63,569 bases of DNA, filler included, from Reticulomyxa filosa (GCA_000512085.1; 20 parts of 20 records of this genome joined end to end with filler, not necessarily neighbours in it); one strand, 5' to 3'; shown: positions 1,023 through 33,740, counted from the whole stretch's first letter. Numbers and translations are program-made. Notes: generated by a model not told the origin, from the sequence alone.

Positions 1023-1817
1023 ATGGACGAAGTAACTGTGAAAATAGTAGTGGTGGGCGACGCCTGTGTTGGCAAGACCTCCATTTTGATAAGCTACACA
1101 GAAAATAAATTCATGGAAAAATATACGCCAACTGTCTTCGAGAACCGGAGCACAATAATATCGTTCAAAAAATATGTTGTAAATTTAATATTGTGGGATA
1201 CTGCTGGCCAAGAAGGTATTGTTGTTTTGTTGTTTTTGCTCTTTGATCTTTCGAAAAGACTTTAGTTTGGAAGACAGAGGGATATTTGTAACTAAAAACT
1301 GCATTGCGACAGTCTCCTTATGTGCTTCTTCTCTCCTTGCCCTTTTTATTTATTTATTAAAAATATGTTTCGCAAAGACTATGACCGACTACGACCACTG
1401 AGCTATCCGGGAACAGATGTAATTTTACTGGTATTTTCGTTGAATGATGAAGACAGCTTGCGTAATATAACAGACAAATGGTACCCCGAGGTTATACATT
1501 ATTTGCCCGACGCCACCGTATTACTTGTCGGCAATAAATCGGATCTACGCACACAAGACAAGCACAAAGACAAAGCAGTCCGCTGGTTTGATGCCACGCA
1601 AGTAAGCAAAGAAATTAAGGCCATCAAATATGTGGAATGTAGTGCTAAAACACAAGAAAACTTGCAGTCTATTTTTGAGTTTGCAATAGATCATGTCATT
1701 AAACAAAAAACAACCAAATACAATGGTAGATTGAGCAAGCCAAACAAACACAATAATCAGTATTCTATTACTAATATTAATGAAAAATTTGTTGTAAAGA
1801 GATGTGAAATTTTGTAA
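1023..1817 (+). CDS. Rho/Rac-family small GTPase, join(1023..1215,1378..1817)
   Basis: GDACVGKT P-loop, YTPTVFEN switch I, WDTAGQE|[10 protein letters not shown] across a GT-AG intron, NKSD, ECSAK and C-terminal CAAX box CEIL. Confidence 0.96.
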
Positions 1818-26618: not shown

Positions 26619-27842
26619 TGTGACAGTGAATTGAATGATTTAATTCGTCAATTTCGCAATGACTTGCAATTGTTGATGAACGAGCAAAGTTATGAAGAAG
26701 GAATAGAATATTGGAGAAGTTTGTTTAGTAATGATTCGATCATTGAAATGAACGATCGAATATTTGTTGGCAAGCAAGAAGTCAACTTTTGGGTTGATAG
26801 TCATTTGTATAATTTTCGTCGAATTCAAATGGACACATTTTCATCAGATGTCACAATAACTCGAGTGGGTGGTGAAATTTCAATTAATTTGGGAGAAGAC
26901 AAATCTATCGATCAATGGAGAGAAGTGAATTATCGAGGCAAAATTTCTCCAGCAGCAGTCAATGAATATAAAGTATTGAGCACCACTTTGTATGCAACAT
27001 ATGTACCGAGAGATCCATTAGGATGTGTCTCTGTTATGAAATGGCTTAGTCTCATTTGGTATGGAGATTTTGACCAAAGTGGTATGTATTTTTGAAAGTC
27101 TTTTGTTGTTTAAAATATATCAACAAAGATTAAATGTATTTGCAAGTATATTATAAAAACATGCTTCAAATGTGAATAGAAAAATATGGACAGATGTACA
27201 AAATTCATAAATGGCTGATGATTTCTGACAAATCTTTAATTGAGTGGGAAGAAGAGCTTACTTGCAATTGGGTTGCTGAGCCTGTTCTATTGAAATCTTC
27301 TTTGAAGAGATTGCTGGATGGAATGTACAAAGACGCTGATATTAGTACAATGGTTAACACGTCTCCTTACATAAAATACGCGAAAGAGGCTTTTTTTATT
27401 CATCTACCATTTACTCCTTTTTTTTGGCAATATCCACAAATCGTTTTTTCTAAAAAAAAAGGTTAGACAATATTATGACACAAAAGCGGAGATGCATATC
27501 GAAAGAGAAGAATTGCGAGGTCATGATGGTATCGTTGAGTGGTATCAAAGATGGCAAAAGTTTGGGGTTACTACGATGTACAATAACATTGACGAAATAA
27601 ATACAATTGGAAATACCATTGTTGTCAAAGTTCTTACCATCATTGTTGATAGCACTGGGCTGTGTTCCAACAGCTATTTATGGTATGGCTTATATCGATT
27701 CAATGGGCATGGACTTATTGTTAGTGAACAAAGATTTTATGCTACCAATACTGTTAAAGAAGCTATTCAAATTATTTCCAACTGTGGAGACATGTCACCA
27801 CAAAAAACACATTCCACTACCCAAAAGAAAAAAGATCTTTAA
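26619..27842 (+). CDS. Hypothetical, probably secreted, protein with two SnoaL/NTF2-like segments
   Basis: WRSLFSNDSIIEMNDRIFVGKQEV and LRGHDGIVEWY...GNTIVVK...YRFNGHGLIVSEQRFY patterns; three co-oriented exons and a hydrophobic upstream exon. Confidence 0.5.
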
Positions 27843-29079: not shown

Positions 29080-29720
29080 CTTCTTCTTCTTCTTCTTCTT
29101 TTTCTTCGGCTTCATCCTCCGTCCCTTCTTCGGTGGTCGTCGTCAAAACCAGTGGCAACGACGTGACGGACTTTTCCATGCATATGCCAGCAGTCCATGA
29201 CGCCAAGCTAGGCACGACAAACACATACTTTGGCGTGGTATCGACCGAAGCAGCTCCGAAGCCGTCGCGTCCGCATGTAAAAATGCACGAGAACAACAAG
29301 CTGTCCGACCGCTTCTTTGGTTCCAACGGCTTCTCGTCTTTGGTGGACGACCGAACCATGGCCGCGCCCTTCTGTGTCGGCCAGTTCCTCCCTGGAACAA
29401 CTCCGCACGGGAAAAACGCTTGCTCAGCAAAATACAGCCCATTCCGGAGACATACATCATCATCATCATCGCCAATTGCCACACAGTTTTGCAATTTTTT
29501 TTTGAATTGGTTGCTAATTGAAATCAATCGATTCATTTGAAATATATTCATTACGACAGTCCACCATTCCCACCACCATCAAAGCGGTGCGCTTCCATCA
29601 ACAGAGATTACAACGACGACAATGATGACCACTGCATACAGCAGTGGACATGTGAAGCTGGGCCATATCACTTTATCGGGTACTGGAATTAATAGTCTTC
29701 CCAAAACAAGCTTTCCTACT
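29080..29720 (+). CDS. Low-complexity Ser/Thr/His-rich protein, 3' fragment
   Basis: GC-elevated open frames SSSSSF...VVVKTSGNDV... and TTVHHSHHHQSGALPSTEITTTTMMTT; the strand is uncertain because the antisense frame is also open. Confidence 0.4.
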
Positions 29721-30178
29721 TTTTTTTTTCAATTGCGAACTTTCCCTTTGTTGTAAAGTCAATGATCTGCCGCAATTTGGTCTTGGTACTGCAAAATAGG
29801 GGTCCAACAGAGATATATAAAAATTCATTGATATCCATTTCTACGTTTATCTTGAGATGTTCAAAGTAATAATAAGTCAAGTGATAGTCAAAAAACAAAT
29901 GAAATCAATAAATTTCAAATCAGTATTTGACAGTACCGTAAGCATGTATTTCACTGTTACACACAGCACACCTTTTCAACTTCTGAACACAACTAAAACA
30001 AAATGCGAAATGGCCACAAGGTATTAAAATATGATTGGATTGTGCATCGCATATTCAACAAGTTTAGTTAGTATTTTGTTTTTCTTTTTCATCGAAAATT
30101 TTTCTGATGACTTGATTAATCCCATTTTCTTTGTTTTCTGCAATCGCTTCATTAGCACTTAATTTTTCAATAACATAA

Positions 30179-31584
30179 GCTCACAAGTGCGATTTCGCGT
30201 AGTAGGGATAACTCTACACGCGATCTACACTCAGAAAAACCTCTGCTTCACCTAGTGAGAAGAGGTCATAGAGACAAACCCCCTATGGTAACCGGGTATG
30301 ATTTTTCTTCATACCAAGTTTTCCTTTTGGATTACTTAATAGAAAGAGGATGCCATCTAAATCAGTCACTAGGGCCTTTCATTCTGTTAGGCGCTTCAGG
30401 TCTGAAGCAAACCTAGGGTTGTGCCTTCATAATTATAATCCCTTGCATTTAAAAAAGGGAAACTTACATCGCTCCAAACTTGTAACCTTTATCTATAGAG
30501 AGGGGGGGCCGCAGAAAGTGCGCATAAGAGTTATGCGTAAAAGGACCTACTCCTATAATAAGGTTGTGGAGAAAGGGAGGTTACGGTCTGCTCTTTTGTT
30601 AGGGGACGAGTTTACTCAGCGACAGGAGACCGATTATGAAGCTGGTGCGCGTTCCTAATTGCAAACGTCACACACAGTCCATAAGTACTAGTAGGCGACG
30701 TCCTATGGACCTCCGTCCAAGTCACTACATCTGGTCCTGTGAAACACAGGATAATATATCTAATTGTAGTTTAAAAGGTCTTGGTCCGAGGGGTTGGGCC
30801 ATATGATGTTGGGACCAAAGACCTACAGCACTGGGAACCTAGCCTTAGGGTGATCTTAAGGATAGTCAAATGACCTCGGAGAAGGCCCAGCAGCGTGCTT
30901 ATGGGGGGTGATAACATTTGTCCGGAGACGGCTTTGTTGTGACGTAGTGTAATCGTAGAGCCACTCGACTCCCATAATCGGATAGAATATCTCCTCCGTC
31001 CTATGACAACACAAGACAGCAGGATACCCAAAGGTTGCTATGCACGCCAGTGTATGTTGTGTTCGATAGCAATACACACAGGCTGCCAACAACCGGGAAC
31101 CAGGACCTGAACCGAATGCCTTATAGCAGCGCGGGATATAGAGGGAGACCCACATGAGACGTGGAAATATACTCTCTTGCCAAGCCATGCCCTAAAGTAA
31201 ATGGTCCTGCAAACGAGGACTATGGTAGGTAGTGGTGGTATCGTGTATACTTGTGAGCAGGAGCCACATATTACAGCTAGCAACACTATGTCGAAGGAGG
31301 AGGTTTAGTACGAGGTACCGTGCGGCTTCCTTGGCCTTCCCTATAGTGCCTAGTAAGTGTTGGCGTGTGGAACAACTCCTACGGCCTGAGAGCACTGATG
31401 AGCCCAATGGCAGGGCAAAACCGTGTATAGCCTTCTAGGCCCAGTTGGTCCGAAACCTACCTATGTTGCACCCTTTGGGGAAGCCAATAGGATATGAGGA
31501 TGCGAGCAACCTAGAAACTAATATATATACACCCTTACAAGGTAGTAATGGCCAACATAAAAGGATCGATCGGCTCCCAACACC
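30179..31584 (+). ncRNA. Large, highly structured non-coding element (candidate structured RNA or retroelement leader), 3'-truncated
   Basis: Abrupt GC rise, no credible ORF, and near-continuous nested helices with many G-U pairs on the + strand (details under findings). Confidence 0.65.
31383..31441 (+). ncRNA. Hammerhead ribozyme-like motif (type I topology, G12A variant)
   Basis: CUGAUGA-GCCC(AAUGGCA)GGGC-AAAA-C(CGU)G-UA, enclosed by GGCCUGAGAGCA / UAGCCUUCUAGGCC. Confidence 0.5.
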
Positions 31585-31989
31585 NNNNNNNNNNNNNNNN
31601 NNNNNNNNNNNNNNNNNNNNNNNNNNNNTTAATTAATTAANNNNNNNNNNNNNNNNNNNNNNNNNNNNNNNNNNNNNNNNNNNNATTTTTTTCTATCCCC
31701 TTCACTCTTGTCCCCTTATTCTGCTTTCCACCCTCTCTGCTTTGTCTCTCCCTCCCCCTCCCCTCCCCTCCCCTCCCCCCTCTGAACTTCCTTCTCTTAT
31801 TCACTGTGTGTCTTATGTTTAATCAGTATAAGTTCAACATTTCCGAATTGTTTATTTGTTTATTTGTTGTTGAGAGTCACATTTTTTGGATGTCAACTTA
31901 ACAGGCAAGATTCCATTTTCCACTTTCTGTCATTTTGTTTTTTGTTTGTTTTTTGTTGATATTGATAGATAGATATTTGCTTGCGATTA

Positions 31990-33740
31990 TCACATATCGC
32001 TGTGTTTTTCCATTGGTGTGAACTCAAACCTGTGTGGGGTCATGTGTCGGAGAGCATTGGTATTTTGGCTGAACCCTTGTATAAACCATTTGTTGGACCT
32101 CTTTCGGATATGATACGCAAGTTGTATTGGCTGAACGAAGTTCTTTCAATAAAGATTTTGGAAATGTTTGCATTGCCAACCAAAAGATTACGAATAAATT
32201 TTTTGAAATTTTTTTTAGAAACGTCCCCATCCCCCCTTTCCCTCCCTCTTCGTACCTTGAAACACATTCCTTGTTGTGTGTTCAAACGTAAGATCTTTTA
32301 ACAAAAGGAAAGAGCAAAAAGTAGAGCCCACCAAAAAAATCATAATAATAGATCTGTGAGATTTAAAAAAATTAAAAATAGCAATTATTGAGCAGTGATA
32401 TAATGATTGGTAAAAAAGCACTGACTTCAACAAATCCAAAGACACAGAAAGAAAAGAGAGAGGGAGGAGCTGGCCATTTGGTTTGATGATTTATTTGCTT
32501 TAAATAAAACTCTGTCGAGATAAACCCCCTCTTTTTTTTTTTTCTTCACGAACAATATAAGACTCAATTTGAGTCGCAAGAGTAAATATTGTGAAAAGAA
32601 GTTATTTTCTTTTTGGATTGACTTGTCTATGTTTTTGTTCTTTTTCAACCTGTATCTGTTGTGATTGATCCAGTCGGTGTTGAAACGCCCTGGCAATCGC
32701 CCATACACTATCACGTGGATTAGTATAACTGTTCCCCCCCCCCGGCATCAACACAGCATAAAAAAACAAATAAACAACAATAATAAACAATTGTTATAAA
32801 GATTCAATTTTTGAAATCATCAAAAGAAGACAAAAAGCGTAATGTTTTTTTCGTTGACAATTGGATAATATGAGTGTGATTGTGCAAAACTCTTCTGGTT
32901 TGTAAATGCGTGGTATCAATCCGGATGTTTGTTGTTGACGAAAATCCAATTCGAACTCCTTGGTTTTGTGATGTCCTTCTCCAGAAGACCTGCTGCTATT
33001 AGAGTGCGCAGAAAAAATGTCCAATTTGCGGCAACTATTGTACATATACAATTCATTCTTCAGCAAAACATTCTCTTCGACATGTTCATTCCAATAGTTG
33101 CCTTTTTTTCGCATCTTCAGTTGTTGGCAGCGCGACTGAAAAATTTTTTTTTTTTTTTAATTTTAAAAACAAAAAAAAAAAAATTTTTATAAAAAAAAAA
33201 AAAAAAAAAATTGGGTGATGAGGTCGTTTTTTTAATTGGTTTGAAAAACTTGAATTTGTGGATGTGGTGGTGTTTGAGGTGATGATGGGATGGTGACTGG
33301 CTTCAGCGGTACAATTGTTCCTGGTCCTGATTCCGGCTTTGCTGTGAACAATATTTCGCTTCTGCTCGATGTAATTGACAAAGTTGCGTGCAGTGCTTCA
33401 ATATTTGGGGTTATTGGAGGTGACAATGAACACGACTGTCCTACTGACGCTGCACTTCCCACTGATGCTGTTGCCAATCAATCACAGTACAAAAACACTG
33501 GTCTTTTTTAATTGTCTTGTCCTCCTCTTATCCCTTTGTCTATTGTCACGTCAAAATTGCAAAAGTGTCAAATTGTTTTTCTTGTCCCTATTGTCTTTCC
33601 CCTTTTTGGCAGTAACCAAAAAAAAAAAAGACATCACTTCTTTGTGTGTTTTTTTGTTGTTGCCACACTTGTTCGACGCGAAGAACGAGAACTCGATTCG
33701 TTTTCGCTGTCAGTATCATACATTTGCTTTATTAGATCCA
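31990..33740 (-). CDS. Multi-exon hypothetical protein or pseudogene (Ser/Pro/Thr-rich)
   Basis: Series of co-oriented minus-strand ORFs (33477, 33114, 32790, 32285) separated by poly-A/T tracts; no family recognised. Confidence 0.35.

Follow-up and report, generated by a model that had tools for sequence, protein, structure and literature searches.

A hammerhead-like motif in a GC-richer non-coding stretch, possibly the remnant of a type I ribozyme

We have analysed computationally a hammerhead-like motif of 59 bases on the plus strand (31383–31441) of a stretch of DNA of 63,569 nucleotides, which as a whole is called the window below. The most likely of the readings that we have weighed, and one to which we give an even chance, is that the motif is the remnant of a type I hammerhead ribozyme, catalytically dead and decayed by more than one defect. 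This reading is ranked first because chance would seldom produce, in a single window, the full type I layout along with a helix II and loop 2 that have an exact natural twin, and because type I hammerheads are common in many animal genomes. Those with a helix III of 1–2 bp are described, in excerpts of PMC4209133 and PMC7229834, as common, if patchy, in animal genomes, and the excerpt of PMC7229834 counts more than 6,000 type I hammerheads in a coral, some 5,000 in a mussel and as many as 120,000 in axolotl. The ancestral copy would have carried G12 and would have been cut 3′ of A17 (31427) by the usual mechanism, with G12, which the excerpted text of PMC6155905 names as the general base of the hammerhead, presumably acting on the 2′-OH of residue 17. 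The present copy is predicted not to cut, owing to the G12A change and, in addition, to the bulged position 1.2, to a loop 3 that is odd and not a palindrome, and to competition from a more stable fold. Its carrier would be a single-copy, non-coding, GC-richer stretch of no named family, located beside an exon of a host RING-finger gene. If real, the motif would join a class of decayed hammerheads of animal genomes of which thousands of copies are known, and would add little to it.

In the window, 20 contigs of 1.3–8.3 kb each are strung together, with 44 N, TTAATTAATTAA and another 44 N between neighbours (for example 31585–31684). As such neighbours have no physical link, the context outside 29080–31584 is uninformative about the motif. 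The contig that bears it covers exactly this interval (2,505 bp) and ends 143 nt past the motif. The 87 ORFs scanned in the window gave eukaryotic families, partly of animal type (Ras, RanBP1, G-alpha, WD40, ankyrin, and C-type lectin followed by fibrinogen_C). The features of the contig are collected in Table 1.

Table 1. Positions, in window coordinates, of the hammerhead-like motif, its parts and its surroundings.
Feature	Position	Strand	Basis or remark
RING-finger exon, C-terminal, of host gene	29920–30180	−	zf-C3HC4_3 at 29920–30054, E 5e-10 (Pfam); adjoins the GC-richer stretch
GC-richer (47%) non-coding stretch holding the motif	30187–31584	+	1,398 nt; continues up to the end of the contig
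Helix I, 5′ strand (GGCCUGAGAGCA)	31383–31394	+	RNAduplex against 31428–31443, −13.8 kcal/mol; 11 of 12 positions paired
Core CUGAUGA (C3–A9)	31395–31401	+	Direct sequence reading; aligned to the Hammerhead_3 core
Helix II GCCC/GGGC (G10.1-C11.1) with 7-nt loop 2 AAUGGCA	31402–31416	+	GCCC 31402–31405, loop 31406–31412, GGGC 31413–31416
AAAA in place of G12 A13 A14 A15.1	31417–31420	+	A31417 is the G12A position; the canonical core is GAAA
Mini helix III, A31420-U31426 and C31421-G31425, loop CGU (31422–31424)	31420–31426	+	Direct sequence reading
A17	31427	+	Predicted type I cut 3′ of A17; GUA triplet 31425–31427 fits the NUH rule
Helix I, 3′ strand (UAGCCUUCUAGGCC)	31428–31441	+	Bulges A31429 and U31436

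The elements that a sequence-only reading had picked out, namely CUGAUGA, the GCCC/GGGC stem around AAUGGCA, AAAA-C, C-CGU-G and the GUA triplet, are all found where it had placed them, and the three helices around the core are arranged in the type I layout that it had proposed. Eleven pairs, interrupted by two bulges and one mismatch, make up helix I, and helices II and III consist of 4 and 2 bp, respectively. The interrupted stem I, described before as pairing 11 of 12 positions with two bulges, is reproduced by RNAduplex. Its distal part comprises GGCCU/AGGCC, the bulged U31436 and the pairs G31388-C31435, A31389-U31434 and G31390-U31433, and its proximal part the A31391/C31432 mismatch followed by G31392-C31431, C31393-G31430 and A31394-U31428 with A31429 bulged. 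The bulge at position 1.2 lies directly at the junction. In the conserved core (C3 U4 G5 A6 G8 A9/G12 A13 A14/A15.1-U16.1), 10 of the 11 positions agree and H17 is A, while the full core is broken at position 12, which is A.

The motif had also been taken to differ from a hammerhead core by the single G12A change, and this is not borne out, in view of the bulge at position 1.2, the non-palindromic loop 3 and a hammerhead fold that lies well above the MFE (see below). With several further defects present, an A-to-G revertant may well remain inactive. According to the excerpt of PMC4209133, the canonical animal type I hammerhead has a helix III of 1–2 bp with a palindromic loop of 2–4 nt that permits cleavage as a dimer, and this is the route by which hammerheads with a short palindromic helix III are rescued in animals (excerpts of PMC4209133 and PMC7229834). 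The helix III of the motif (2 bp, 3-nt loop) is of a length within this animal type I range, but its loop, CGU, is not a palindrome of the kind that the excerpt of PMC4209133 describes. Since ACCGUGU has no self-complementarity and cannot pair with itself, the dimer cleavage that had been invoked by analogy with Penelope-like elements and retrozymes is closed to this motif. Loop 2 likewise lacks a partner in a loop 1, the sole UGCC within 31200–31584 being located at 31347. Nor can this UGCC be displayed as loop 1 by an extended helix I hairpin, as there is no upstream complement of 31385–31394.

The change at position 12 had been interpreted as CpG to CpA decay of a once active ribozyme. Such decay is possible, the observed/expected ratio of CpG being 0.65, but it is not demonstrated, since CpA (0.96) and TpG (1.01) are not in excess. 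The descent from an active copy gains support from a natural hammerhead with G12 and an identical helix II and loop 2, while the several further defects fit poorly with a copy that is only one change away from activity.

This natural relative was found by scanning a metagenome collection with a 27-mer that runs from CUGAUGA through the AAAC part of the core, with either A or G at position 12. A single locus, L001, was obtained, with 26 of 27 bases identical and G at position 12, so that the 15 nt of helix II and loop 2 are the same in both. For a random stem-loop of the same geometry, we estimate the chance of an exact natural twin in this collection at about 1%, which is a rough, uncalibrated guess extrapolated from the 6 distinct GCCC-N7-GGGC loops of viral contigs (see below). 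The match could mean that hammerheads have converged functionally on few loop sequences, or alternatively it could link animal genomic hammerheads with ribozyme-bearing RNA replicons. It is important to note that the sole identical natural relative is a type III hammerhead (Rfam Hammerhead_3, 43.0 bits, E 2.4e-7) located in a virus-like RNA and not in an animal repeat, which speaks against the type I remnant. Beyond the 27 bases, no similarity between L001 and the window was detected by blastn, blastn-short or tblastx.

The exact 27-mer occurs neither in viral_contigs nor in genome_contigs, and a text search of the literature for the motif sequence string gave no match. Viral contigs do contain GCCC-N7-GGGC between canonical cores, at 8 loci with 6 distinct loops, and the loop of one phage locus, L006 (AATGGGA), is one base off loop 2 of the motif. 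All six of the viral loci that were searched with Rfam score as type III hammerheads (27.8–42.1 bits); L004 and L008 were left out, being repeats of L002. Among the 123 matches listed for the two cores at a spacing of 13 nt, a helix II of at least 3 bp is present in 73, which comprise 54 distinct stem-loops, and 2 of these 54, again among the matches listed, have the GCCC helix. The loop AATGGCA with any helix II was not found in viral_contigs, but as each of two permuted-loop decoys was also found 0 times, this result is uninformative. By eye, L001, L003, L005 and L006 each have a complementary set of four bases in loops 1 and 2 (UGCC/GGCA, UACC/GGUA, GGCA/UGCC and UCCC/GGGA). This covariation, judged by eye, is consistent with a loop–loop pseudoknot in those four type III hammerheads; a complementary loop 1 of this kind is absent from the motif.

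The alternative that survives best, and that we regard as possible though on balance doubtful, is that the motif has never been a ribozyme at all and is a chance look-alike, that is, a local hairpin in a GC-richer non-coding stretch whose apical part contains CUGAUGA, a small hairpin and AAAAC by coincidence. The covariance models give this alternative some ground. The whole window has no Rfam match at gathering scores, and the hammerhead-model search that had been suggested as a check turned out unfavourably: in E-value mode, the motif reaches 17.2 bits with Hammerhead_3 against a threshold of 48.5, with E of 6.9 in 4.5 kb and 2.2 in 1.4 kb, and it is aligned as type III. Hammerhead_1 is absent from the output, in which overlapping matches of the same clan (CL00010) are shown once, and the 17.2 bits are the Hammerhead_3 score only. 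When the 5′ closing strand is removed, the score is 17.4 bits, still with Hammerhead_3, which means that only the core and helix II contribute to it. The threshold of 48.5 bits is likewise missed by the natural relatives from phages and the ambivirus-like contig, with 27.8–43.0 bits, but their E-values are at most 0.003.

The folding calculations point in the same direction. A segment of 76 nt around the motif does not fold better than its shuffles (z of +0.40 and +0.42 for the two strands), and the type I hammerhead fold, at −11.7 kcal/mol, is 6.5 kcal/mol above the MFE of −18.2 kcal/mol, whereas six natural hammerheads with the same helix II are only 0–3.7 kcal/mol above their own MFE. In the MFE structure, the distal part of helix I and helix II are retained, while GCAC (31392–31395) pairs with GUGU (31423–31426) instead. 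The same two elements are kept in the MFE and centroid structures of the entire 1,398-nt stretch. When the 76 nt are folded in a longer context, the 3′ arm of helix I pairs elsewhere. It should also be pointed out that two incompatible closures, of type I and of type III, both fit the motif, as coincidences would. The topology is therefore not unique, which counts against the type I remnant as well. Finally, no copy, tandem partner or transposon context was found within the window and contig searched.

How often such a motif arises by chance was estimated with a descriptor (CUGANGA, a helix II of 4 bp, a loop of 3–12 nt and GAAA, one mismatch at most being allowed in the core), comparing the window with its own dinucleotide shuffles. 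A near-core with a 4-bp helix II is at chance level, with 2 in the real window and 1.05 per shuffled window (300 shuffles, 65% of which have at least one). The second near-core, on the minus strand at 26847–26823, is an example of this chance background; it has CTGATGA, a 5-bp helix and GAAT, and no closing helix (the helix I duplex has −2.2 kcal/mol). In 2,820 shuffles, 73 near-cores have G10.1-C11.1 and four Watson–Crick pairs (0.026 per window). Little weight attaches to a mini helix III with H17, which is present in 805 of 1,781 shuffled near-cores (1,874 shuffles).

Helix I is what sets the motif apart, being far better than in the shuffles. Among the 805 shuffled near-cores with a mini helix III, a helix I duplex of −14 kcal/mol or lower is found in 0 and one of −12 kcal/mol or lower in 1, the value of the motif being −13.8. 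Because the window is AT-rich and the surroundings of the motif are not, matched nulls were added for helix I. Random arm pairs from 30187–31584 give a P of 0.0013 (18,282 pairs) and arms of local base composition a P of 0.005 (20,000 pairs). When the helix I geometry is slid along the stretch, 1 of 1,337 positions is this good, which is the motif itself, and 3 of 440 arms have such a partner at any spacing of 20–50. We estimate that the full type I layout exceeds chance, with a joint frequency of 2–6 per 100,000 windows, a figure that is a product of shuffle rates and does not come from real genomes. This low frequency and the identity of the 15-nt helix II and loop 2 with those of a natural hammerhead are what stand against a look-alike. 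On the other hand, over some 250,000 windows, 4–15 equally good chance cases are to be expected, and the figure is accordingly suggestive and not proof.

Coming back to the remnant of a type I hammerhead, we compare the motif with the known systems of this kind. With the type I hammerheads of animals (satellite DNA and non-LTR retrozymes; RF00163) it shares the open helix I, G10.1-C11.1 in a helix II of 4 bp, a helix III that is very short (2 bp) and an NUH triplet (GUA), and animal-type ORFs are present in the window. It differs from them by A12, the 3-nt non-palindromic loop 3, the bulged position 1.2 and the lack of a threshold Rfam match. Retrozymes, as described in the excerpt of PMC7229834, are tandem repeats of 150–450 bp with a GC content under 45–50%, whereas the motif is solitary and the local GC around it is 47–55%. 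The minimal hammerheads of Penelope-like elements (excerpt of PMC4209133) resemble it in their type I topology, their weak or absent helix III and their low or absent monomer activity, which is also predicted for the motif. In that same excerpt, however, they have a helix II of 7–8 bp after an unpaired base and a helix I of 4–5 bp, where the motif has a helix II of 4 bp, and they have a palindromic 15.2–16.2 and loop 3 and a flanking RT/GIY-YIG ORF, neither of which is found here. The type I hammerheads in mycovirus 5′ UTRs (excerpt of PMC13725137) are alike in being single type I motifs in a long, non-coding, structured stretch, but their helix III is long according to the excerpt, and they belong to fungal and plant viruses with RNA genomes; no viral ORF or similarity was found here.

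The motif may also be read as the remnant of a type III hammerhead (RF00008) of the kind seen in L001 and in phages, which we consider improbable. Helix III would then be formed by UACGG/CCGUG (31380–31384/31421–31425), the cut would lie after C31386, and the ribozyme would be dead by G12A, C16.1 and the loss of helix I. This is how Rfam aligns the motif, with this helix III, C at 16.1 and a helix I of 2 bp, and the 5-bp closure is indeed in register, which is the case in only 6 of 2,820 shuffles. In addition, type III is the class of L001, the sole locus with the same helix II and loop 2, and of L006, the locus closest in these elements, and with L001 the motif shares 26 of 27 bases over CUGAUGA, helix II, loop 2 and GAAAC. 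However, helix I would consist of 2 bp and a 4-nt loop, compared to a hairpin of 5–7 bp in the six natural ones. In the type III hammerheads of the L001 and phage kind, the loop of this hairpin pairs with loop 2, G12 and U16.1 are present and the fold is at or near the MFE. The C at 16.1 opposite A15.1 would be a second lesion of the core, the closure adds nothing to the covariance-model score (17.2 vs 17.4 bits), and the type III fold has −8.7 kcal/mol against −20.4 kcal/mol for the MFE. The much rarer type I helix I would be left unexplained, and the likeness to L001 ends with the 27 bases, with no second ribozyme on either strand.

The stretch that carries the motif begins at a composition break at about 30187, where the GC content rises from some 30% to 47%. 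It has no ORF of more than 118 aa in the standard code. Twelve stop-to-stop frames (11 of at least 52 aa and one, truncated by the end of the contig, of 48 aa) contain no Pfam family, and RT, endonuclease and GIY-YIG domains were not found in them; only sub-threshold matches to Fer2 (E 0.031) and wHTH (E 0.1) were obtained. Longer frames under codes 6, 14 and 27–31 were considered and set aside, since they open in several frames at once and look like effects of composition. The contig 29080–31584, which ends shortly after the motif, has no tandem or dispersed repeats, and there is no second copy within the window. Searches of the stretch for tRNA genes and for a second ribozyme on either strand (Rfam, E up to 10) gave none, DNA similarity searches against plasmids and phages gave no match, and a scan for bacterial promoters and terminators gave nothing useful. 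Strong structure is predicted for the first 300 nt (z −4.56, with 0 of 100 shuffles as good). A series of near-perfect hairpins extends over 30170–30480 on the plus strand, with a sliding-window z of −5.0 and no Rfam family, and a 27-mer from the 5′ hairpin is not found in genome_contigs. Near the motif, the sliding-window z is −0.3 and +0.8.

One may ask whether the stretch as a whole derives from an RNA replicon with ribozymes, or from a viral UTR, that was copied into DNA and fixed in the genome of an animal, with the motif as its inactivated hammerhead. We find this highly improbable. Candidates would be ambivirus-like, viroid-like and mycovirus-type agents with an isolated hammerhead, and such an origin would account for helix II and loop 2 being identical to those of L001. 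This locus also has a Hairpin-meta1 ribozyme on the opposite strand, about 300 nt from the hammerhead (56.9 bits, threshold 40), and a 514-aa ORF that belongs to no Pfam family and has only two relatives among 5.8 billion proteins, both unnamed and one of them on a contig of 5,454 nt. The two ribozymes of L001 are in opposite polarities, at 1621–1692 (+) and 1996–2054 (−), with ORFs on both strands. The excerpt of PMC10162972 describes ambiviruses as ambisense, about 5 kb long and endowed with hammerhead or hairpin ribozymes in two polarities, and from these features we infer that L001 is ambivirus-like. Apart from the 27 bases, the ambisense ORFs and the hairpin ribozyme are its own and it has no further likeness to the window. 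The stretch itself lacks the marks of an ambivirus- or viroid-like circular RNA, having neither paired ribozymes in two polarities nor ambisense ORFs of more than 118 aa, and its MFE structure is branched. A rod-like fold, as in viroid- or delta-like RNAs, was rejected on the latter ground.

Another option, also raised earlier, is that the stretch forms the 5′ portion of a group II intron with the motif as a domain I arm and the hammerhead likeness an accident; this is hardly credible, as it would make the hammerhead layout a coincidence of 2–6 per 100,000, and as Rfam gave no group II model (domain V/VI, D1–D4) at E up to 10 or at gathering scores, the contig has no domain V-like hairpin and no RT/maturase ORF, and the neighbouring context is a nuclear RING-finger gene. 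What speaks for it is that the stretch starts at 30187, at the composition break, with GTGCG (cf. 5′ GUGYG), that its first 300 nt form the strongly structured multi-hairpin domain described above, and that 30179–30186 is perfectly complementary, in the manner of IBS1–EBS1, to 31251–31258 some 1,065 nt downstream (control, 10 of 579 flank 8-mers). An EBS1-like site at this distance from the 5′ end is, however, outside the usual domain I, which extends far less than that. The partner TGCCAT proposed for the AUGGCA loop is indeed present at 30351–30356, but it lies inside the putative intron and not at the end of the 5′ exon, which weakens the group IIB EBS1 interpretation of the arm further.

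Two minor observations concern the surroundings of the stretch. Translated on the minus strand, the RING-finger exon contains two in-frame stops four codons apart, TAA at 30066–30064 and TGA at 30057–30055, and the TGA falls on a variable residue position within the first CxxC of the RING finger. The stops point to a pseudogene, to sequence errors or to stop-codon read-through, and a changed genetic code is disfavoured by the long standard-code ORFs elsewhere in the window. In the next contig, a weak match to MIR529 was obtained at 32439–32554 on the plus strand (24.3 bits vs 75, E 0.026); it is a purine-/pyrimidine-rich hairpin of low complexity, and the match is probably due to chance.
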